Shown: positions 18,732 to 29,886 of the stretch, in pieces
Layout: each line of letters opens with the position of its first letter
Numbering within the stretch: position 1 is the first letter of the stretch
Notes under the pieces: generated by a model
The model's input: the letters and a program-made list of their open reading frames with translations, nothing else
Databases searched by the model: none
What the model was told of the DNA's origin: nothing
Source: Sedimentisphaerales bacterium
GTDB lineage: Bacteria; Planctomycetota; Phycisphaerae; Sedimentisphaerales; Anaerobacaceae
Direction of reading: 5' to 3'
DNA length: 64,000 nucleotides
NCBI GenBank assembly: GCA_963708075.1
Contig: OY970194.1
Location: 1,312,001-1,376,000 of the forward strand
Position numbers and translations under genes: made by a program

Positions 18732-19239
18732 TGAAGCTCAGGGCCGGGTCAAATGCTATGGCTACCTGGACATAGAGACAACGGGCCTCAGTCGTAGCTA
18801 CTGCGATCTCACGGTAGTAGGGGTGGCGGTAATGCGCGGAGCACAACAGCAGTTCATGCAGCTTTATGGCGATCAGATCAACGCCGAGGCTGTGCTGGGC
18901 CTGCTGGAGGGTGTGGATGAGTTCTATACGTACAACGGCAGCCGGTTCGATCTGCCCTTCCTCCAGCAGAGGCTGGGCCTGGACATACGCCGCAAGTACG
19001 CACATACGGACCTGATGTACAAGTGCTGGCTCAAGAACCTCAAGGGCGGCCTGAAAGTCGTCGAGGCGCGCCTGGGCATAGAGCGGCGGCTCCAGGACAT
19101 GAATGGACTCATGGCGGTTCGCCTGTGGTGGGAATATGTCAACAACAATGATATCCAGGCCCTGCGGACGCTGCTGGAGTACAATAAAGAGGACGTTGTC
19201 AACCTCCATGTTCTGCGGGAGAAACTTGGCGTGAAGTAG
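18685..19239 (+). CDS. RNase H-like DEDD exonuclease (RNase_H_2/YprB-like)
   Basis: YLDIETTGL, TYNGSRFDLPFL, GGLKVVE, LEYNKEDV; start uncertain (18631-18685). Confidence 0.85.
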   Translation: MSTQVSCPPGEEKTRSEAQGRVKCYGYLDIETTGLSRSYCDLTVVGVAVMRGAQQQFMQLYGDQINAEAVLGLLEGVDEFYTYNGSRFDLPFLQQRLGLDIRRKYAHTDLMYKCWLKNLKGGLKVVEARLGIERRLQDMNGLMAVRLWWEYVNNNDIQALRTLLEYNKEDVVNLHVLREKLGVK

Positions 19240-19262
19240 ACGCCTACTGTGGTGCATCGCGT

Positions 19263-20264
19263 ATGCTGAACCGGGTGCAACTCAATCGCGGAACGCACGG
19301 CCATATCCGCGTGCTGATCTATGGCGGTGGGGCGGTAGGTCTGGGCATCGCGAGCTGCCTGCTCCATGCGGGCAACGAGGTGGATATCCTCGCAAGGCCG
19401 CAGACGGTCGCCGCCCTGGAGAGGGAGGGGCTGACGCGGACGGGGATCTTCGGCGATGTCCATGCCAAGCCCGGGGCGTTTCGCTGCTACTGCTCGTTGC
19501 AGGAAGCGTGCAGCGGACCGTATGATTTCGTGCTGATTTGCACAAAATCGTTCGATTCGCCTTCCGTTGCAGAAGACCTTGGCCGACAGCGAGCGTGCAC
19601 GAATAGCACCGCGAAACTTGTGTTGTTCCAGAACGGCTGGGGCAATGCCGAGGTCTTCGCCGCCCGGTTCGACAAAGACCGCATCTTCAACGCGCGAGTC
19701 ATCACGGGGTTTCACAAGCATCAGCCCAACGAGGTGGAGATCACGGTTCACGCCGACAGCATCCACATCGGCAGCCTCTTCGGTGTGGACCCCGGCGCTG
19801 TGGAGAGTCTGTGTCATGCCATCAGCGCGGGCGGGATCCCCTGCGAGAAGACCGATGCGATCGAGAAGGACCTGTGGGCGAAGATGCTGTACAACTGCGC
19901 CCTGAATCCGCTCGGAGCAATCCTCGGCGTGCCTTATGGAGTTCTGGCCGAGCATGCGCCGACGCGACAATTGATGGACAAGATCGTCGAAGAGGTTTTC
20001 GCAGTCATGGCGGCCAGTGGTTACAGGACACACTGGCAGCAGGCCCAGGACTTCCTGAAGGTCTTCTACGAGCGATTGGTTCCCGACACCGCCGATCACA
20101 GGTCTTCCATGCTCCAGGACCTCACAGCGGGCAAGCGTACGGAGATCGACGCGTTGAACGGGGCCGTCATCCGGCTGGCGAACGAGCACGGACTCCAAAC
20201 CCCGTACAACGGCGCCGTCTATCGCCTGATCCGGTTCCTTGAGAGCCGCCCCGGCACCGAGTGA
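19263..20264 (+). CDS. panE: 2-dehydropantoate 2-reductase (ketopantoate reductase)
   Basis: GGGAVG, CTKSFD, FQNGWG, WAKMLYNCALNPL, SSMLQD, TEIDALNG. Confidence 0.9.
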   Translation: MLNRVQLNRGTHGHIRVLIYGGGAVGLGIASCLLHAGNEVDILARPQTVAALEREGLTRTGIFGDVHAKPGAFRCYCSLQEACSGPYDFVLICTKSFDSPSVAEDLGRQRACTNSTAKLVLFQNGWGNAEVFAARFDKDRIFNARVITGFHKHQPNEVEITVHADSIHIGSLFGVDPGAVESLCHAISAGGIPCEKTDAIEKDLWAKMLYNCALNPLGAILGVPYGVLAEHAPTRQLMDKIVEEVFAVMAASGYRTHWQQAQDFLKVFYERLVPDTADHRSSMLQDLTAGKRTEIDALNGAVIRLANEHGLQTPYNGAVYRLIRFLESRPGTE

Positions 20265-20276
20265 GAAGGCCGACCG

Positions 20277-21113
20277 GGAATTGGCTTTGTTTTGCACAGC
20301 CGGCTCTTTGGCAGGACCGCCCGGCTTGCTGGTTCGATCTTTCCCAAATGCCCCACACGTCCCAAGTTTGGCTTTGTTCCGCATGGCGTGGCGGGCCTCC
20401 AGATTGCCCCATGCAAATTGGCTTTGTTTCACACCCCATGCCTCCCGGCCATTCGGTAGGGTGGGCTCTGCCCACCGCGGGTCCATCGGCGGGAATTGGC
20501 TTCGTTTCTGACCCGGTTCCAACGCATCACTTCTCTCGTAACCTCCTTTCAGGTCAATAGTTAGCGTCGCCACGACCGTCCATTGAATTGGCTTTGTTTG
20601 TCACAGTGGCTCTCACGTTCTTCAATCCGCATTCTGCAATCCGAAATCCGCAACCCCGGGGCTCCTGCCCCGAAATTGGCTTTGTTTGGCAGGGCCGGTC
20701 GTCGCTCCGGGCCGTCTCTGACCGCCTGTTCTCCACATATCACATGTCCCCCAAATTTGGCTTTGTTTCGCACAGTCGCCTCCTGTCGAACCGTCCCGCA
20801 TGCAATACCAATTCTCCCCCAAATATCCCATCCATCCCAGGTTTGGCTTTGTTTTGCGCAACAAGCCGCGCTCGTAGTGACGCCGTAAGGCGTTCGTGGC
20901 GAGGGCCCTTGTCTTCCTCCTATGGAGATTGGCTTTGTTTCGCATCATCGACCAATCAAGCATAACCCCTTTCTCACATAGGATTTCGGCTGATTCCGGT
21001 CCATGTGAATTGGCTTTGTTTCGCACAGCGTACTCCTTGCCTTCAATTCGCATTCCGCAATCCGAAATCCGCAATCGCAGGGCCCTTGGCCCCGAATTGG
21101 CTTTGTTTCGCAT
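20277..21113 (+). repeat. Regularly interspaced direct-repeat array, 11 copies of about (AA/GT/AT)TTGGCTTTGTTT(C)GCA
   Basis: Core TTGGCT starts at 20281, 20368, 20418, 20496, 20588, 20676, 20757, 20843, 20929, 21010, 21097; no credible CDS here. Confidence 0.9.
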
Positions 21114-21222
21114 GACCCGGCGCCCGCTGACGCTGATGTGTGCCTGACCGGTCCCCGGCAGACCTTCGGGGGTGTGGTCGGAATTCGGTGGCGGCGTGTA
21201 GCTGCCGTGTGCGGACCGGGCC

Positions 21223-21509
21223 TCTTTCGTCCCTTACGGGACTGGCTTCTATCCTTGACCTCGGTTTCCCAGCGATGAATCGCTGGGCTATTCTCTATCG
21301 CCCTCCGGGCTTGGACGGCACCCGGACGGATCGATCACCATCCCGCAGGTGTTGCAGCTACTCTCTATCGCCCTGCGGGCGTGGACTGCGCTCCAGTCCT
21401 CTTGCGTCGGTCCATCCGCCCCACAGGGGCGATCGACAATAGCCCACCGTTTCAACGGTGGGTACCGATAGCCAATCCTATCCCAGAGCCCCGCAGGGGC
21501 GAAAGAAGA
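21223..21509. repeat. Inverted pair of ~88-bp triple-hairpin elements (BIME/REPIN-like) with a degenerate partial copy between them
   Basis: 21223-21310 (GTCCC-ttac-GGGAC; CCCAGCGA-tgaa-TCGCTGGG-CTATT; GCCC-tcc-GGGC) matches the reverse complement of 21418-21509 in layout and linker sequence. Confidence 0.75.
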
Positions 21510-21581
21510 CTGGGGGCGCTCCTTTGTCCGGCGGAATCGGAATCCGCCACCGAATGCCGACCGCACCCGACCTTCGGAATC

Positions 21582-21608
21582 TTTGATTTTTGATGTTTGA
21601 TTTTTGAC
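21582..21608 (+). repeat. Heptamer tandem repeat (TTTGATT-like)
   Basis: tttgatt tttgatg tttgatt tttgac. Confidence 0.7.
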
Positions 21609-21761
21609 TTGCCCATGGCTCATACGGGCGTGCCCACAGATCGGCGATACTTGGTCGTAGGACCATATACTAGAGACGCTCGCCGAGCCGGATTGTTCCA
21701 GGAATTTCTGTTGAATAGTGAAATACTTCAGACCTTTTTGCGGTCCTGACCCCGTCTGTTT

Positions 21762-21812
21762 GTAGTGACGCCGCAAGGCGTCTCCTGGATGATGCCCTTG
21801 CGGGCACACTAC
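21762..21812. repeat. Inverted doublet of GTAG-tagged REP hairpins (REPIN-like)
   Basis: GTAGT-GACGCC-GCAA-GGCGTC on +; GTAGTG-TGCCC-GCAA-GGGCA on -. Confidence 0.75.
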
Positions 21813-22182
21813 AAGCGCACCGGCCAAGCCTGTCTCCTGTCCTCCGCCAGAATCCATCTGCCACGTCGGGCAACCTGCCGGTGGATGAGTTTTGCGCGTT
21901 GGGGTCACCAGCATGATAGATCGCTCGCGCAGGCGCCAAGCAACGCCTGGAACAGGGCTCCAGCCCGAGCCATGCTGGAGGCCAAAAGCGGCAAACTCCC
22001 GTCGCGAAGCGACGGAACCGACAGGCCCGCCTCATGACTCTGGGCACAGGCAATCCGCCCGGCCTCGCCCGGACCAGGTCCTGCTCACCTGTCACGACTC
22101 GCTAATCTCTTGTCACGCCGGGACCTCCTGCCTTTCTATCCTGGGGCCTGTCCGGAGAGGGGGAGAAGTGGTCCGGGCGCTC

Positions 22183-22204
22183 GTAGGGTGGGTCCTTGAC
22201 CCAC
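22183..22204 (+). repeat. GTAG-tagged REP-like palindrome
   Basis: GTAGG-GTGGGTC-CTT-GACCCAC; same family as 20456-20476. Confidence 0.7.
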
Positions 22205-22237
22205 GCGGTTATCTTCCTGGAATCCTCGCCCGCCCGC

Positions 22238-22266
22238 TTGACCCGCCCGGCCGGACAAGCTACAAT
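22238..22266 (+). promoter_or_regulatory. Sigma70-type promoter with no full-length downstream gene
   Basis: TTGACC-17 nt-TACAAT. Confidence 0.5.
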
Positions 22267-22459
22267 AGCGGATGACAGTTGGAGCGAATCGCATGGTGGC
22301 AGTGCACGAGACGGACAGAATTAGGAACTTGCCCGGTATGCGTGGGGCAGCGCCCGGTCCATGCTGACGGGCGGGATGCGACGAAATAAGCCGTCCCCCA
22401 GAGTCCGTGAACCAAAAAAGTACCGTACCCGTTTAATTCCCCGGAACTTCCCGAGATAG

Positions 22460-23128
22460 TCACAGCCTGCTCCTGTCCTTTTCTGCTTGCAGGGCGTTCT
22501 CGATCTTTGATAGCTCTTGGTGTGAGTACTCTACCCTGTGGTCGATCTTACCGTTGTCCCCCTGCAACATGTGTCCGATGGTAACAGGCCCAACAGTCCA
22601 CTCGGAATACCATGTGCCGACACCCATGGCTATCCCTGTGCCCCATCGCTCTGGATCTTCGCGATAGGAAGTGGACTGCCAGATTCTCTTGGACTCCACC
22701 GGTTCACCATACTTCTCTCTGAGTTTTGCCTCAATGACTTCAAACTCGGTACAATACCAATTCGCATTTGAATGCTGTGTCAGAAATGAATAGCGCCCTC
22801 GAACGAATGTGTCAGATGCGAAAAGGTAAATGCAGCCTACCTCCAGACCGCCAATGCTGTCGTGAAACCCCATTCCCTTCTCGTTCTCATACATTGGCTC
22901 ACGTGCCTCGGCCTCTTTGATTCTTGCCCTACTGGCACCCCAGGGCACACCCCGGAAAAGGATGGTGTTCGGCTCAGCAACCGCCTTGGCTGCCCAAGTT
23001 CCATCGGTGTAGAGGATAACCCTCATCCCTGAAAATGTGATTGCCTCCTCTCGAACCGTCTTCTCTGTGTCAGCGACGGTGACCATCGTGAGCGACAAGA
23101 CACACAGGCAAATGGCTACGCGAGTCAT
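22460..23128 (-). CDS. Hypothetical exported protein
   Basis: Signal peptide MTRVAICLCVLSLTMVTVA; FRGVPWGAS and LREKYGEP motifs; AT-richer codon usage. Confidence 0.7.
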   Translation of the reverse strand: MTRVAICLCVLSLTMVTVADTEKTVREEAITFSGMRVILYTDGTWAAKAVAEPNTILFRGVPWGASRARIKEAEAREPMYENEKGMGFHDSIGGLEVGCIYLFASDTFVRGRYSFLTQHSNANWYCTEFEVIEAKLREKYGEPVESKRIWQSTSYREDPERWGTGIAMGVGTWYSEWTVGPVTIGHMLQGDNGKIDHRVEYSHQELSKIENALQAEKDRSRL

Positions 23129-23191
23129 GCATTCTGCTCCTTCCCTCGTCATTTCGTATTTCCCAGCGGGCACGATGCAGAAGGGCACCCG

Positions 23192-24115
23192 CTACTTTGC
23201 GTAGAACGGCTCTATTTCAGGTGGTTGGTATGTAGCGTACTCAACTCCGTCCGCTACGGTCATAAGCCCTCTCAGGCTTTCGCGGGCACCCTCTACCTCG
23301 TGGAGTTTCGGCATATGAAGGTCGAATGGCATCTGTGGGGAGATGCCAATAACCTGAGTCAACATTGCCCGAATAAACGCGCTGTCATGGTCAGGACACA
23401 CTATGGCCGACTCGCCAGCGGCTCGGGCGAAGTAGTAATTGAGGACATGAGCCTCACCCCTTTCCAATTGCATGGCTGTATGCGAAGGATTGCCGGGCGT
23501 TATGTCCTCATAAGGATTCCAGTCATCTGGCATAGAGCAGGCGACGAAGCAGCACCGAGGACTGAGCGGGTAGTAGAGGACTGACTTAGGCGATATTAGA
23601 AAACCGGTCACGTATACGGGATTATCTGTTCTGATGAAGAAGTCATCAGGGTGCGCAACCAAGATGGTCCAGTCTCTTCCAGCAACCTCGCGAAGGTCCA
23701 GGCACTCCTCGCAGCCGACACGATCATGCGATGGTTGCTCCCTTACACCTGTGAGTTGCTTTGCAGTCTCCTCGTAGCGCATGAACGTTGGCGTACGCAC
23801 AAACTGGGAACGAAGGAACTGCGACCACTTAAGACGCGATTGTGCATCTAGTGACCGCCCGCGGAGCAGTGCGTCATAGATGAGCGATGCAGGGGTCTCC
23901 AACTCGTGGTGGAGCGCATATTCGACACGATCCGTGTACAGTCTGCGCAGGCGACCCCACTGCCTCCACCCGTTCGCGGTCTGACTCACTCTCCCCTTGT
24001 GATAGTCACGATAATAACAGACATAGTGTTTGTTCGCCGCCCAGTGCTCGTTCGCAAACGCAGGAGAGAAATGGTTGTTATTAACTCGAGGCCACCGCGA
24101 GTTGCACGCACACAT
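23192..24115 (-). CDS. DUF4238-like protein
   Basis: NNHFSPAF N-terminal motif, SQFVRTP, FIRTDNPV...YYPLSPR; start uncertain. Confidence 0.6.
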   Translation of the reverse strand: MCACNSRWPRVNNNHFSPAFANEHWAANKHYVCYYRDYHKGRVSQTANGWRQWGRLRRLYTDRVEYALHHELETPASLIYDALLRGRSLDAQSRLKWSQFLRSQFVRTPTFMRYEETAKQLTGVREQPSHDRVGCEECLDLREVAGRDWTILVAHPDDFFIRTDNPVYVTGFLISPKSVLYYPLSPRCCFVACSMPDDWNPYEDITPGNPSHTAMQLERGEAHVLNYYFARAAGESAIVCPDHDSAFIRAMLTQVIGISPQMPFDLHMPKLHEVEGARESLRGLMTVADGVEYATYQPPEIEPFYAK

Positions 24116-24392
24116 TTCTGTTCTTCTCCCAACAGTTACTTGAATTGGGGACAACCGCCGAGTGTCGCCTTGCTCTGTCCTGTTTTACCCGACACTTGGA
24201 CTGGCACAACCATCCAACTCATCTTGACCTCAGCGGGTGCGCCCAACGTAGCGGAACCGCCAACCACTTCGTCGCCGCTTCATCAAGTATCACGAAATGG
24301 GTCGAGGGAGGCAAGAGAAAACGCAGGGCAGCCCGGCGTGGAAATTCGAAATTCCAGGCCGGGGAGGAAGGAGGGGCGGATCTGGCGGATCT

Positions 24393-24437
24393 GGGGACAC
24401 AATACTTAATTCTCCACGAAGTAAGTAATGTGTCCTC
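24393..24437. repeat. Imperfect inverted repeat with GGGGACA end
   Basis: GGGGACACAATACTTA...TAAGTAATGTGTCCTC (14/16 complementary). Confidence 0.7.
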
Positions 24438-24552
24438 GGAATCCCTTTTGAGGCCGGGGCACGCGTGGTAGAATAGTGCATGCGGTACGGACGACCCAAT
24501 GCAATACGCCAACGGAGTGCGGAGAAGAAACACGGTTTCGGAGGACAGAGAG

Positions 24553-25324
24553 ATGAAAGCAATTTATTGGCAGGCCTTTATTCCGCTTATGGCCATTCTG
24601 GCTGTCGCCCCAATTGCTCAGGGCAAGCTGTCGCGCATTCGAGACCCTTGCTGGCACGTTCGAAGTCGGTGGCAGCGTGTATATCGACGACATTTGGGCA
24701 GCCGAATACCCGGAGTTGAATCTGCCATACTCCGACGGTTTTCACGTGGTCGATAGTCAACCGGTATCTGGCTCAGCTCAATACGTATTGCCCGGAACCG
24801 TGGTTCCCTTGGAGGGCGTCTTCTGTGAGGCGAGCTATGAGAGAATCGCCACCATTTATGAGCATGGAGTAATGGTGTTCAGCGACGAGGGTTCTGGGGG
24901 CGTGGCAATTAGCGATTATCTCTTTCGACCACGGCATTCCTCTGTCTATGAAGTGACCTTCAGCGGCTTCTTGACCCCAGTGGGAATGCACATACCGCAC
25001 GATTGGTTCGAATTGTATCTGACCGATACAACTACCGGCGAGGCTCTCATCGATGTCCGTGGGCCGTTCCACGGGCCATGGGCCGAACTATTCAGTTACT
25101 CTTGGGATACAGAGCACGAAGAGACGTTCAAGTTCCGTTTCTTCGATTCACACACGTATCGCCTGAAGATGCTGATTCAACCCTTCTCTACTTTGTGGGA
25201 CAATCCCAGCATAGGCGGTGAAATGAACGTATCAATGAAGCCAATTCCTGCTCCTGGCGCGGCCCTACTTGGTACTCTCGGTGTCAGTCTCGTTGCATGG
25301 CTGCGCAAGCGTCACAGCTTATAG
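24553..25324 (+). CDS. PEP-CTERM-like (IPAPGA) surface protein; +1 frameshift at 24621-24623
   Basis: RBS plus signal peptide MKAIYWQAFIPLMAILAVAPIAQ joins ASCRAFETL if GGG is read as GG; C-terminal PIPAPGAALLGTLGVSLVAWLRKR. Confidence 0.75.
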
Positions 25325-25536
25325 AAGACATCTTACCAGCGAGACCTCAGTACAGGACCGCCGCCGGGATGGCAGTGCTGTCTCGTCTGTGAAGGGAAGA
25401 AAAGAAGGGGTCAAGAAGCTTTGGATTTAGGTGTCGCCAGGAGCTGGCACAGCTTTGGAGAGGATTCGGGGTCAACTCTCGGCGCTTGACGGTCGGCACG
25501 GACTGTCCGAGGTCGGGGTGGGAAGCCGGTCCATAA

Positions 25537-25675
25537 TTGATGATGGATGATTGTTGATTGATGATTGGGAGGAAGAAAGAGGGTATCGCGCAAAGACGCA
25601 GAGAGCGCCAAGAAACGACGAAACGCAGGAGCCTTCTTGAACGGTTTCCTTGGCGTGCTTGGCGTCTTGGTGCGA
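25537..25675. repeat. Heptamer tract plus ~30-bp inverted repeat made of 9-mer units
   Basis: ttgatga tggatga ttgttga ttgatga; 25587-25616 cgcgcaaagacgcagagagcgccaagaaac vs 25644-25675 gtttccttggcgtgcttggcgtcttggtgcga. Confidence 0.7.
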
Positions 25676-25712
25676 GGTAATCACGGTTCCGGCTGGAAGC
25701 CGGGCTGGGCAG

Positions 25713-25952
25713 TCATGGTCTATGCGCTCGGGTCCGACGTTGGCTGTCAGAGGACAAGAGCTTCTTGCGAGTTTTCGGGCCGACCTTTTCGGGCACGACG
25801 GTCTCGGCACACAACGGAGCGAGCAGAGGGTCGCGGAGGACCTCCTCGTGGGTCCTTTGCCGCTTTTGTGCCCAGGTCAAGGCCGCATCTTCTTCATCGA
25901 TCTGTGTTCGCCGCTGGCGCATCCATGCCACGGCGTCAAATCTCTTCTTCAT
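25713..25952 (-). CDS. Small putative antitoxin downstream of a PIN protein
   Basis: MKKRFDAVAWMRQRR; overlaps the PIN gene stop. Confidence 0.6.
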   Translation of the reverse strand: MKKRFDAVAWMRQRRTQIDEEDAALTWAQKRQRTHEEVLRDPLLAPLCAETVVPEKVGPKTRKKLLSSDSQRRTRAHRP

Positions 25953-26406
25953 TGAGCAGCATCTCCTTTGGAGAGCGGATTTCTATCGGCCGATAGCCCT
26001 TCTCCATGCTTACGGCATTGAACAACCGTATTCTACCAAGATTGACGATGTGTTTGAAGTTCCAACTCACCAGGACATCACACTCGCTCACCACGGCCAG
26101 AGCTACGTGCAGGCAATCCGCACGGCTTCCGGGCCCGACGATCCGGTGTTCCAGATAGGCTTCTGCCAAGGCGTAGGCTTCGTCGTTATCCGCCAGGAGG
26201 ATCCGGTGCTCTTGCGGTACTTCCGGCGGTCGTCTACGGACCCGTTCGGGGGCACCCGCCAATTCGCGGAGCGTGTGTTCGGACAGAACCATCACATATC
26301 GGCCTTCGATGAAAAGCCGCCACAAGGTCAGACTGTCTTCGGCAAACTCGACATCGTCACAACCGCCGACGACAGAGGCATCGACATAGACCAGCATCTT
26401 CTTCAT
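25936..26406 (-). CDS. PIN-domain protein (VapC-like toxin)
   Basis: VYVDASVVGG...EL...DCLHVALA...LVSWNFKHIVN; real start MKKML at 26406. Confidence 0.85.
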   Translation of the reverse strand: MKKMLVYVDASVVGGCDDVEFAEDSLTLWRLFIEGRYVMVLSEHTLRELAGAPERVRRRPPEVPQEHRILLADNDEAYALAEAYLEHRIVGPGSRADCLHVALAVVSECDVLVSWNFKHIVNLGRIRLFNAVSMEKGYRPIEIRSPKEMLLNEEEI

Positions 26407-26622
26407 CTGCCTGCTCACAGTCCATACTGTACGCCACCTTGGAGCGGTCTGCAAGAGTCTGCCACTGTGTTTCGGATTTCCTGCTTTGTGCTTTCTTGCT
26501 GGTGTGTCCTGTGTACTGCGGCGTGGGATGGCGTATAATGGCGCCGGAAGTATGGTTGTGGAACAGGTTGATATACGCGGCGTGCGGGGCGGCTTGGCCC
26601 GGCGGCTGCGGGATCGGGGCCG

Positions 26623-28722
26623 ATGGCAGGCAGAAGAATAGACGAACATACGCTGAGAGTGCTCGAATTCGAGGATGTGAAGAACCTTCTGGCGTCGTTT
26701 GCGGCCAGTGATTTGGGCCGGGACGCGGCAAGGGCGCTGTATCCGTCGGTCGATCTGCGATGGGCGAAGGCGCGCGTCGCGGAGACGGCCGAGTTGGGGG
26801 CGGTGCTGGAGCGTGGCGAACGGGTGCCGATGGCCGGCCTGCGCGATATCCGGCCGACGCTCAAGGAGTTCGGCAAGAAGCAAACGGTGCTTGAGCCTGC
26901 CCAGTTGCTTGAGATTTCCGACACGCTGGCGGCCAGCGGCAGGCTGAGGCTGTTCCTCACGAATCTGGAGCCATCGCAGAGCAGCCACCTGCACGCTATG
27001 GGCGAGAAACTCGGCGATTTTCAGGCCATCGTGGATGAGGTCAGCCGGTGCATCGGCGGCGATAAGCGCGTGCGCGACGACGCTTCGGATAAGCTCAAGG
27101 AGATCCGCCGCAAGATGGCGGAGTTGAGCGAAGCCATCCACCATCGGTTTTTGAGTATTGTCTCTTCGCCTTCGCTGCGTCGGGCGGTCGAGAACGACAA
27201 TTTCCTGCTGCGTCACGGCCGGCCCGTCGTCGCGCTAAAAGCCAATTACCGCACCGCTTTGCGAGGCACGGTTCTGGATCGTTCGAACACCGGGGCCACC
27301 CTGTACGTCGAGCCGGACGAGCTGGTCGAGTTGAGCAACGAGATGGAGGACGCGGTCTTCGAGGAGAAGAAGGAGATCGGCCGCATCCTGTGGCTCCTCA
27401 CGAAGATGGTCCTCGATCAGCAGGAGGCTATCCTTGACAGCGTAAAGACGCTCGCCCTGGTTGATTTGACCTATGCGAAGGCGAGATTCGGTATCGCCTA
27501 CGGTATGCACCCGCCGGACCTCAATCCCGGTGCTTCGCTGCAGCTTCGCCAGGCCCGGCATCCTCTGCTGCTGCATGTGGCAAGCCGGCAAAAGGGGTGC
27601 GAGGTGCGCGAGCTGACCGATGAGATCGTGCCCATCGACGCCCGTCTGGGCGAGGACTTCGACCTGCTCCTGATCACCGGGCCCAACACCGGCGGCAAGA
27701 CCGTGGTTCTCAAGACCATCGGCCTGCTGACCGTCATGGCCCAGAGCGGCATGCACATCCCGGCCCTCGCGGGATCGCAGGTCTCCGTCTTTCGGCAGGT
27801 CTATGCGGATATCGGCGACGAGCAGAGCATCGAGCAGAGCCTGAGCACGTTCTCCGCCCACATGCGACAAGTCGTCAAGATTCTGAACGAGACGAACGAC
27901 GGCACGCTGGTCCTGCTCGACGAGCTTGGTGCGGGGACCGACCCAATCGAGGGGGCTGTATTGGCCACGGCTGTGCTGGACAAGCTGCTCGAAAAAGGCG
28001 CGAAGGTCGTGGTGACCACCCATCTGGGGCAACTCAAGTCCTACGCCTACAGCACGCCGCGGGCACAGAACGCCTCGGTGCAGTTCGATAGCGAAACCCT
28101 GGAGCCCACGTTTCGATTGATGATCGGTACGCCGGGCAGCAGCAATGCGCTGGTCATCGCCAAACGCCTGGGCATGCCCAACTCCGTCATCGTCGAGGCG
28201 AGCTCCTCGCTGGAAAAGGAATCCGACGGTACCTCTGATCTGATCAACCAGATTCAGGCGACCCGCGAAGATTCCGAGCGCAAACGCTCCGAGGCCCAGT
28301 CGATGCTCGACGAGGCCAAGGCAGTGCGCTCCGAGGCCGCCGAGAGACTGCAGCAAGTGGAAGAGGAAGGCCGGCGGCTTAAGGAGCAGGCAGACCAGGA
28401 GATCGACGATTCCATGCGGGCGGTTCGCCGCGTGATCGATGAGTTCGCCGCCGAGATGCAAAACGCCCCGAGCCTGTGGCAGCAGAAGGCCCAGGGGTTG
28501 GTCGAGAAGACAGCCGAACTTGCGGCCGGGACGCCCCTGGCGACGCGCCATGCAGCCTTCATCGAGACCCTGCACAGGGGCGACAGCGTCTACGTGATTC
28601 CCTTCCGGCGCGAAGGCATCGTGGAACGCGTGCGCAAGAAGCGGGGGACAATCGAGGTCTTCGTCGACAGCAAGCAGGTCGAGGTACCCTTCGCAGAAGT
28701 CTCAAAACCGCAGCAGGCGTAA
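26623..28722 (+). CDS. mutS2: MutS2-family ATPase lacking the C-terminal Smr domain
   Basis: LRVLEF start, ARHPLL, ITGPNTGGKT, DIGDEQSIEQSLSTFSAH, LLDELGAGTDP, coiled coil, KOW-like end; TATAAT at 26534. Confidence 0.88.
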   Translation: MAGRRIDEHTLRVLEFEDVKNLLASFAASDLGRDAARALYPSVDLRWAKARVAETAELGAVLERGERVPMAGLRDIRPTLKEFGKKQTVLEPAQLLEISDTLAASGRLRLFLTNLEPSQSSHLHAMGEKLGDFQAIVDEVSRCIGGDKRVRDDASDKLKEIRRKMAELSEAIHHRFLSIVSSPSLRRAVENDNFLLRHGRPVVALKANYRTALRGTVLDRSNTGATLYVEPDELVELSNEMEDAVFEEKKEIGRILWLLTKMVLDQQEAILDSVKTLALVDLTYAKARFGIAYGMHPPDLNPGASLQLRQARHPLLLHVASRQKGCEVRELTDEIVPIDARLGEDFDLLLITGPNTGGKTVVLKTIGLLTVMAQSGMHIPALAGSQVSVFRQVYADIGDEQSIEQSLSTFSAHMRQVVKILNETNDGTLVLLDELGAGTDPIEGAVLATAVLDKLLEKGAKVVVTTHLGQLKSYAYSTPRAQNASVQFDSETLEPTFRLMIGTPGSSNALVIAKRLGMPNSVIVEASSSLEKESDGTSDLINQIQATREDSERKRSEAQSMLDEAKAVRSEAAERLQQVEEEGRRLKEQADQEIDDSMRAVRRVIDEFAAEMQNAPSLWQQKAQGLVEKTAELAAGTPLATRHAAFIETLHRGDSVYVIPFRREGIVERVRKKRGTIEVFVDSKQVEVPFAEVSKPQQA

Positions 28723-28728
28723 CGAACG

Positions 28729-29886
28729 TCACACCATCGCTTTGCTGAGTATTTCAAGGAGTTCGTCGTCGCGCAGCTCGATGGGATTGCCCTTCATGCT
28801 ACTGGCCTTCTTTGCCTGGGCGACGACGGCAGGCAGGTCTTCCCTTCGCAAGCCGTACTCGCTCAATCCGGGCAGGCCGAACCCAGCGCATAACTCCTGA
28901 ATCCAGGAGACAGCGTCGGACGCCTGGGCGGCGGGTTTGCCGGTCAGGATTCTCGCGGCCTCATCGAAGCGGGCCCGGGCCGGTGAGTCGAAGGATCGGG
29001 ACTGCAAGGCCCATACGTTCGCCTCAATGACGTAGGGCAGAAGCTTGCCGCAGATAACGCCGTGGGGCGCATTTGTCATGCCTCCCAGTGGGCCTGCAAA
29101 CCCGTGCACGGCGCCGAGGGCAGCGTTGGCCAGTGCAAGACCGCTGAAGAGACTGGCTATTGCCATATCCTCGCGCGCCTGGGCATCGTTCCCATCCCGG
29201 AACGCACGTTGCAGGGACCGGCCGATCCGTTGCAGGCCCTCGCGGCAGACGCCGTCTGTCATCGGATTGGCTTTGTTTGAAACGAATGGCTCGATGAGTT
29301 GAGTGAGGGCATCCAAGCCGGTGCTGGCGGTCAGCTTCGGCGGCATGGAATGGGTCAGCAGCGGATCGACCAGGGCCACCCGGGGCAGCAGAAGGGGGCT
29401 TCGCATGCTGACTTTTACCCGGTGCTCGGGGACAAGGAGGACCGCGTTGCGCGTGACCTCGGCCCCCGTTCCCGCCGTCGTCGGCACAGCGATGTACGGG
29501 ACCGGCTCGCCCTGCAGAGGTTTACCCTTGCCGACGACCTCAAGATAATCGAGCAGTTCCCCCTCGTTTTTCAGCATGGCAGCAACGACCTTGCCTGTAT
29601 CGATGACGCTGCCGCCGCCGATGGCGATCACGACCTGGCTCTGGGCCCATCGCGCCGACACGACAGCCGCCTGGGCCATCTCCGTCGTGGGTTCCCCGAC
29701 GACATGGAAGACTTCGGGCACGACCGCCACGCAAGCAAGTTGATCGAGGATTCGACCGAAGCGGTGCGGATCGCTCCCCAGCATGAGGAACACCCGGTTG
29801 CCAAACGCGACGGCTATCTCGGCCAACTGGTCTGCGGCACCCGGGCCAAAGATGATCCTGTCGGCAGTAGAGAATTCGAATCTCAT
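28729..29886 (-). CDS. Iron-containing alcohol dehydrogenase
   Basis: GGGSVIDTGK, VPTTAGTGAEVT, GLDALTQ, GAVHG, PHG. Confidence 0.92.
   Translation of the reverse strand: MRFEFSTADRIIFGPGAADQLAEIAVAFGNRVFLMLGSDPHRFGRILDQLACVAVVPEVFHVVGEPTTEMAQAAVVSARWAQSQVVIAIGGGSVIDTGKVVAAMLKNEGELLDYLEVVGKGKPLQGEPVPYIAVPTTAGTGAEVTRNAVLLVPEHRVKVSMRSPLLLPRVALVDPLLTHSMPPKLTASTGLDALTQLIEPFVSNKANPMTDGVCREGLQRIGRSLQRAFRDGNDAQAREDMAIASLFSGLALANAALGAVHGFAGPLGGMTNAPHGVICGKLLPYVIEANVWALQSRSFDSPARARFDEAARILTGKPAAQASDAVSWIQELCAGFGLPGLSEYGLRREDLPAVVAQAKKASSMKGNPIELRDDELLEILSKAMV

Follow-up and report, generated by a model that had tools for sequence, protein, structure and literature searches.

The repeat array that follows panE in the window (the whole stretch of 64,000 nucleotides of Sedimentisphaerales bacterium DNA that was analysed) is very probably the gene-less derivative, specifically the 3' part, of a single-gene element, as judged by comparing its sequence with other copies. 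A complete copy would consist of a leader, then a gene whose product carries an ANRRNAxKSTGPRT motif, and then a series of direct repeats. The element is real, is not CRISPR, and is apparently undescribed and widespread over several phyla; no description of it was found in the open literature, a search in which subscription journals were mostly outside coverage, as were supplements.

Results

The array occupies positions 20278..21112 (minus strand; locus A8 of 41) and consists of 11 direct repeats of ~19 nt and 10 modular units. Its biologically meaningful strand is the minus strand, on which the repeat reads TGCGAAACAAAGCCAATT. The 11 co-oriented copies claimed in the original prediction are real, with starts at 20281, 20368, 20418, 20496, 20588, 20676, 20757, 20843, 20929, 21010 and 21097, and the periods given there (87, 50, 78, 92, 88, 81, 86, 86, 81 and 87 bp) were reproduced exactly; the fourth copy is TTGGCTTCGTT. 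When at most one mismatch was allowed, 13 repeat matches were found in the window against a shuffle mean of 1.52, and 13 was reached in 0 of 100 shuffles. A single exact repeat core at 29267, in a coding region, is probably due to chance. The array begins ~14-17 nt downstream of the panE stop, in agreement with the predicted ~15 nt, and panE (ketopantoate reductase, with ApbA domains; 19263..20264, plus strand) is a host gene lying on the 3' side of the array and convergent with the element. As had been predicted, there is no credible coding sequence in the array: the gene caller placed no gene inside it, and the 163-aa NKAN ORF on its minus strand has no Pfam match. An Rfam scan of 19000-23000 placed no family on the array, and no sigma-70 consensus was found in 20200-22000. 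Contigs of one sequencing run support pieces of 19200-26900, with the joints deriving from other repeat copies.

Several of the units carry recognizable modules. Two are GTAG-type and REP-like, a hairpin at 20456..20476 (plus strand), whose family occurs outside arrays too, and a second module at 20874..20893 (plus strand), of which there is a further copy at 21762. An ATCCGCA heptamer tract lies at 20620..20660 (plus strand) with a second copy at 21041-21080, and the two heptamer-tract units are 82% identical over 82 nt. The 92-bp unit contains an imperfect palindrome of the TAA-N~18-20-TTA type (20539..20564) and corresponds to the repeat-palindrome-repeat unit, of modal length 90 bp, that lies behind intact genes in other genomes. 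A second palindrome-type module (20963..20986) lies in an 81-bp unit, and over its full length the spacer of this unit shares 78% identity with a unit of array A12. The palindrome module is thus carried by both the 92-bp and the 81-bp units of the window, and elsewhere there is usually one copy per array (14 of the 15 arrays having it).

The repeat belongs to a large family. Across both strands of the 7.5-Mb genome, there are 299 exact matches to TTGG[CG]TT[CT]GTT, while a fifth-order Markov model predicts ~1-1.5 per word and strand. Most of them (270) fall into 41 clusters, every one of which is confined to one strand, and 29 are solitary; the consensus of 294 units genome-wide is ~19 nt long, [A/C/G]AATTGGCTTTGTTTCGCA. 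The suggestion of a lineage-wide interspersed repeat was therefore borne out by 41 arrays in this genome and by abundance across the genus, where 23 other members hold 23-1228 repeats per genome against 2-11 for reversed-pattern controls; in most other families of the order, the count is near control. The proposed ~85-bp period describes the window array and fails genome-wide: units can be as short as 32 bp or as long as 375 bp, and for gene-less arrays the median is 77. Nor did the suggested helical phasing (about 8 turns) hold (Rayleigh p~0.21 at 10.5 bp, 208 spacings), with p=0.018 at 11 bp being one among five periods tried (n=208), so that these arrays differ from phased operator or iteron arrays in lacking whole-helical-turn spacing. 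In the host genome, 30 of the 41 arrays are directed toward a co-oriented host gene and usually end shortly before its promoter; this bias was not reproduced in the GTDB loci (35 vs 33, from crude ORF calls). In some relatives (G003, G024; L023-L044) the repeats occur as inverted pairs within an array, unlike in the host genome.

One unannotated gene is present in nine copies, eight intact and one broken and split by another element, and ten of the 41 arrays make up the 3' portion of these copies. The gene product starts with M..A.V.ANRRNAxKSTGPRT, and the gene is read on the AACAAAGCCAA strand, opposite to the one on which the repeat was originally described. At G000:C1:4778158-4780453, a gene copy is frameshifted, and an ORF of 371 aa that looks transposase-like in sequence interrupts its array. 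On the correct strand, 13 of 31 gene-less arrays were matched by a profile built from the leaders of six gene-bearing copies; the further long hits of this profile are weak. A second profile, from the leaders of the remaining three gene-bearing copies, raised the number to 14. The other 17 match neither profile, and about ten further arrays have in common a different leader with a TTGACA-type promoter. A GTAAGTC-N12-GACTTAC-type palindrome, similar to the one in the 90-bp unit, marks the 5' end of the leader; it is found at tRNA-Lys and tRNA-Ser ends as well, and also ~500 bp before an integrase gene (e.g. G000:C1 2321595, 2233740 and 5725446).

In several gene-less copies, the leader, the ribosome-binding site and the first codons continue directly into the first repeat. 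In the window, a decayed ribosome-binding site and the first ~12 codons of the element gene, with the start codon lost, were recognized by eye at 21119..21167 (minus strand) against nine gene starts and other gene-less copies, and this remnant also passes directly into the first repeat. Homology shows that the window copy has lost the gene body from about codon 12 to the first repeat. Further upstream is the conserved leader (class I; 21570..21730, minus strand; nhmmer E=1.3e-24 with the profile of six gene-bearing leaders), which has a heptamer tract at 21582-21607 and is without the 5'-most palindrome of the leader. An unrelated 399-bp MITE (21170..21568) splits the leader; it has 25-bp terminal inverted repeats and a 9-bp target duplication (21161-21169 and 21569-21577), and its family has 19 near-full copies in the genome with 8-9-bp target duplications.

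The window copy is located at the junction of panE and a mutS2-like gene (26623..28722, plus strand; named from its sequence rather than by a family scan), where there is a 6.4-kb insert (20265-26622). The rest of this gap (22460..26400) holds accessory genes, namely a 242-aa hypothetical, a DUF4238 gene and ORFs of 236 and 137 aa without Pfam match; these are neighbours of the element and are not assigned to it. When the locus downstream of panE was compared across the genus, panE adjoined or overlapped mutS2 in 8 of the 11 genomes where panE was matched. The gap of G007 and G021 is occupied by the gene and 2-3 repeats directed to mutS2, opposite to the window copy; in G005, the gene follows panE at a contig end; and in G027, a gene copy with an early stop lies immediately before mutS2. 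Other cargo at this junction includes a kinase-like ORF (G007) and REP-like DNA (G011). Site-specific targeting of the gap is not proposed, since a single opening followed by refilling explains the pattern equally well.

In order to follow the link between gene and repeat beyond this genome, we compared homologous loci in GTDB using the best 80 of 574 confirmed homologous stretches, a sample biased to close relatives in which 72 loci have enough flank. A repeat was found 450-1300 nt after the gene start on the gene strand in 60 of these 72 loci; a repeat in range was absent from 12, and inverted copies were present in 13. Among the same best 80 of 574, the three bins covering 500-1250 nt hold 138 forward repeat hits against at most two in any other 250-bp bin, and the repeat-bearing hosts include Planctomycetota, Acidobacteriota, Pseudomonadota and Actinomycetota. 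In these stretches, 73 repeat copies lie after the stop of the gene and 60 lie within the ORF, where they fall into all three frames (16/19/25). Because the repeat occupies all three frames and is often found beyond the stop, these counts show that it is conserved at the level of nucleic acid. The modal spacing of repeat pairs in other genomes is 90 bp (14 at 90, 6 at 91 and 4 at 89), with the imperfect palindrome in the centre.

The protein encoded by the element had no match in Pfam, NCBIfam or PDB sequences and no credible match in PHROGs; in an Atlas search, the core hit only unnamed clusters and residues 1-48 yielded no usable result. Neither a catalytic domain nor a transposase of the DDE, HUH, serine, tyrosine or DEDD class was recognised in these searches. 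The family is nevertheless very large: a profile search collected 38,584 clusters (50% identity) at E<=1e-3, 22,568 at 1e-10 and 1,753 at 1e-30, with the weaker hits expected to include proteins that have only the N-terminal motif or the tail in common. One homologue, WP_068422708.1, is encoded on a plasmid of the cultured Planctomyces sp. SH-PL62 and has a single repeat in its tail. Structure prediction (pLDDT 83; residues 33-39 <50) gives a helical protein, two of the helices being long, and fold searches returned generic helical hairpins only (best Z 7.6, rmsd 3.4, 106 aligned), so that no specific fold match was obtained, nor was one obtained for the model of a phage homologue (pLDDT 64.5). 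The homodimer prediction, with a score of 0.02, gave no call either way. In a 77-row alignment, A9, N10, S17, T18, G19, P20, N32 and R87 are invariant and there are no conserved Cys/His finger ligands; H36 is conserved too, and Y155 is at least 90% conserved and is replaced by His in five copies of the host genome. Residues 2-44 match phage proteins with 99.3% probability, the common motif being STGP[RK]T...N..KHG over ~44 residues, and homology ends at residue 44. A terminase large subunit directly follows the phage motif-sharers in 7 of the 12 pairs scanned, three phage homologues match small-terminase PHROGs, and 4 of the 8 tested match HGGxSTG NF041373; the identity of the phage proteins as small terminases rests on this gene order and on the PHROG hits, as the fold searches are unspecific. 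The phage loci are without the repeat, so that having the motif in common is not enough to specify it. Among the IMG/VR loci L095-L143, there is a group of phages in which a Cys-rich protein of 205-245 aa precedes a terminase large subunit of divergent sequence; an integrase often lies immediately upstream, and these Cys-rich proteins are mostly unnamed in PHROGs (phrog_26872).

In several features the gene resembles mobile DNA. It was found in 22 of the 23 other genomes of the genus, in 0 to 24 copies per genome, some of them broken, and its copy number covaries with the repeat count (rho 0.87 over 41 genomes and 0.79 over the 25 in the family, kin not being independent). The dN/dS ratio is 0.17-0.57 over 28 pairs (first 100 codons), and the gene is under purifying selection. 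In a quick tree, the eight intact copies of the host genome form one clade (SH-aLRT 99), and the copies of several Acidobacteriota genomes likewise group by genome. These results show a lineage-specific expansion of the gene, though clustering by genome could also be explained by gene conversion. Five copies are 84-92% identical in DNA and lie at unrelated sites. No recurrent partner gene family was found among 133 neighbours of homologues. Most of these neighbours are housekeeping genes; they include five transposases, which belong to different families, as well as a single reverse transcriptase and a single HNH gene. The same picture emerged from 53 ORFs taken from the window and from the flanks of 20 of the 31 gene-less arrays. 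One ORF beside a homologue in an environmental Planctomycetota genome (L016:3976-4737) has a weak PF07737 match (E=1.5e-6). The element is therefore multi-copy and patchy, with both filled and empty sites, as are IS elements and MITEs, and the region upstream of the promoter travels with it. No terminal inverted repeat or target duplication was seen by eye at the ends of nine aligned copies, the ends being unfixed without a close empty allele.

The units themselves are mosaic. When the spacers were searched against phage, plasmid and self sequence, the phage and plasmid searches were blank, while 167 of 253 spacers match a spacer of another array in the same orientation (0 in the shuffled set). 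Identity over the whole spacer is at least 65% for 162 of 231 spacers compared with 3 of 60 shuffles. We then looked at the neighbours of the best pairs (at least 70% identity) between gene-less arrays: of 40 scorable pairs, none had matching neighbours on both sides, 4 had a match on a single side and 36 had no match on either. Whole units thus recur between gene-less arrays with different neighbours, which supports the suggestion of a site array that collects small modules and shows that the units are mosaic. Module order shows partial conservation (agreement in 35 of 44 ordered pairs, a count without a null model), as expected under block inheritance, and this counts against unit exchange. 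In addition, REP or heptamer families found outside arrays match 122 of the 253 spacers in part, with more than 80% coverage in 8; several modules are ordinary REP or heptamer families common outside arrays, and some of the sharing may have arisen by independent insertion. An exchange of units anchored on the repeats is, on these data, an even proposition.

Discussion

Our working reading, to which the evidence leans somewhat, is that the array is the 3' site array of the element and that the protein binds the repeat and brings repeats together, an activity that would underlie both copying and exchange. That the protein of the element recognises the repeat as a DNA site is slightly more likely than not. 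Protein made by intact copies would bring repeats together, and the synapsed repeats would allow the element to be copied into new intergenic sites and single units to be exchanged between arrays, with a cutting enzyme probably supplied in trans. A wider proposal is put forward tentatively, and it may well be wrong: that a motif like that of phage small terminases drives a new class of single-gene element in several phyla with no known transposase, whose protein recombines or synapses the 19-bp repeat and whose gene-less arrays make up a network across the genome in which short non-coding units are captured and swapped singly.

An RNA role, in which a leader-driven transcript through the array is bound or processed by the protein for guide-type function or RNA-mediated copying, seems unlikely. 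It would account for repeats that are co-oriented within each host-genome array and lie downstream of a leader, for the clear TTGACA-type promoters of several leaders, for the strand bias of the spacers (C>G in 38 of 41 arrays) and for the basic N-terminus of the protein. However, units differ widely in length (32-375 bp), the predicted fold of the minus-strand RNA is no more stable than that of shuffled sequences (z=-0.55), DNA upstream of the promoter moves with the element, and 13 of the 72 loci (best 80 of 574) carry inverted repeat copies. Neither Cas1 nor Nop genes were found in the 92.8%-complete genome and the spacers have no phage or plasmid match, which, with the RNA fold, leaves the original reading of a processed guide array unsupported.

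We also hold it unlikely that the protein is a host factor that organises the chromosome or regulates, as MatP does for matS, while host recombination and the insertion of REPs let the arrays grow and mix passively in intergenic gaps that tolerate them. Purifying selection on the gene and its presence in 22 of 23 other genus genomes would fit such a factor, and the REP families of the units are abundant outside arrays in a genome with 13 Y1 transposase matches; the panE-mutS2 gap, moreover, gathers different inserts in different genomes. Yet a host factor would not be expected to occur in 0 to 24 copies per genome, some broken, in lineage-specific clades and among unrelated neighbours, and the repeats are bound to the 3' end of the gene itself instead of being scattered singly.

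Less probable still is that the protein is a stand-alone adaptor resembling small terminases and that the repeats and palindrome form a packaging signal, the element being spread through transduction by a helper-phage terminase and not through intragenomic copying. The N-terminal motif is common to phage proteins directly preceding TerL, some of which match small-terminase PHROGs (three) or HGGxSTG NF041373 (4 of 8), and the 90-bp repeat-palindrome-repeat unit recalls the layout of cos/pac packaging sites. However, the element protein has only the ~44-residue N-terminal motif in common with phage small terminases and HGGxSTG proteins (NF041373), the remainder being unrelated; the phage loci are without repeats; and the presence of near-identical copies at five unrelated positions in a single genome requires an integration step beyond packaging. 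Phage small terminases are ring oligomers that bind both packaging DNA and TerL, and their genes immediately precede that of TerL; no terminase or other recurring phage gene was found among the 133 neighbours of bacterial homologues. Finally, a protein repeat encoding a functional KQSQ, TKPI or NKAN peptide is very improbable: the array is indeed translated where the gene is intact, as the ORF runs through it in eight intact copies of the host genome and such tail peptides occur in 116 of 120 homologues, but the spread over three frames and the larger number of copies after the stop than inside the ORF (73 vs 60; best 80 of 574 stretches) largely refute this reading; gene-less spacings spread over the mod-3 classes (86/59/67) and a window array in which no gene is called also count against it.

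The reading in which the protein synapses the repeats of its own element can be set beside known systems. IS elements comprise intact single-gene copies plus internally deleted, non-autonomous MITEs, and it is this behaviour that the element resembles most, with intact and internally deleted copies, lineage bursts, and filled and empty sites. It differs from them in having no transposase family match and no visible terminal inverted repeats or target duplication; the true MITE inside the window leader, which has both inverted ends and a target duplication, provides a direct contrast. Integrons hold cassettes with attC hairpins, an IntI tyrosine recombinase and one promoter region. The likeness is that units of the element appear to move singly between arrays behind one promoter region; the differences are that these units are 30-170-bp and non-coding and are bounded by a fixed non-palindromic word, not an attC hairpin. 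No tyrosine recombinase was found beside arrays, the four PF00589 matches in the genome all being elsewhere.

The original statement that the array is not CRISPR is upheld by its ~19-nt repeat, its units of 32-375 bp, the lack of a Cas1 match and its self-matching spacers. Typical CRISPR repeats are 25-36 nt with spacers of similar, near-constant size (PMC12045711), and both the repeat and the unit sizes of the window family fall outside these typical values. TIGR-Tas arrays have two alternating 8-12-nt repeats and 9-nt spacers in 36-nt units (PMC12045711), a layout absent from the arrays of the element. With both systems the element shares a row of repeat units that adjoins a leader and, where the copy is intact, one gene, and it differs from both in its single 19-nt repeat and in variable units drawn from self-derived repeat families. 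The Nop domain (PF01798) had no match in the genome and the fold search listed none, Tas proteins being divergent. REP/BIME sequences and REPtrons are built on a palindromic 20-40-bp unit tagged GTAG or CGTC and are associated with RAYT transposases (PMC3733652). The element is alike in its short, dispersed intergenic repeats, its mosaic clusters and the GTAG-type REPs among its modules; its organising repeat, in contrast, is non-palindromic, GTAG-free and co-oriented, and its gene has no Y1/HUH match. A Y1 (RAYT) partner is likewise lacking, with a Y1 hit in just 1 of 133 homologue neighbours and 1 of 53 array-side ORFs. The MIGE of giant viruses is a multi-copy element with one zinc-finger ORF preceded by non-coding DNA and with an unknown mode of spread (10.1101/299784). 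It resembles our multi-copy element of one ORF and non-coding DNA, in which, however, the protein is helical with no conserved Cys/His finger, the repeats come after the gene, and arrays lacking the gene are more numerous than intact copies.

The element brings forward a very large protein family without a Pfam, NCBIfam or PHROG model, and its association with a specific 19-bp repeat and a defined leader permits direct assays of binding and mobility. If the protein moves DNA, it would represent a route of transposition or unit exchange outside the known transposase classes, and, at about 180 aa, a compact tool candidate. The element also explains one way in which spurious ORFs with repeat tails, and CRISPR-like calls, arise in genomes of Planctomycetota and Acidobacteriota. 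Of the surrounding features in the window, the 399-bp MITE contains two matches to Rfam Acido-Lenti-1, its only location in the region scanned, and this "sRNA" family may here belong to mobile DNA.
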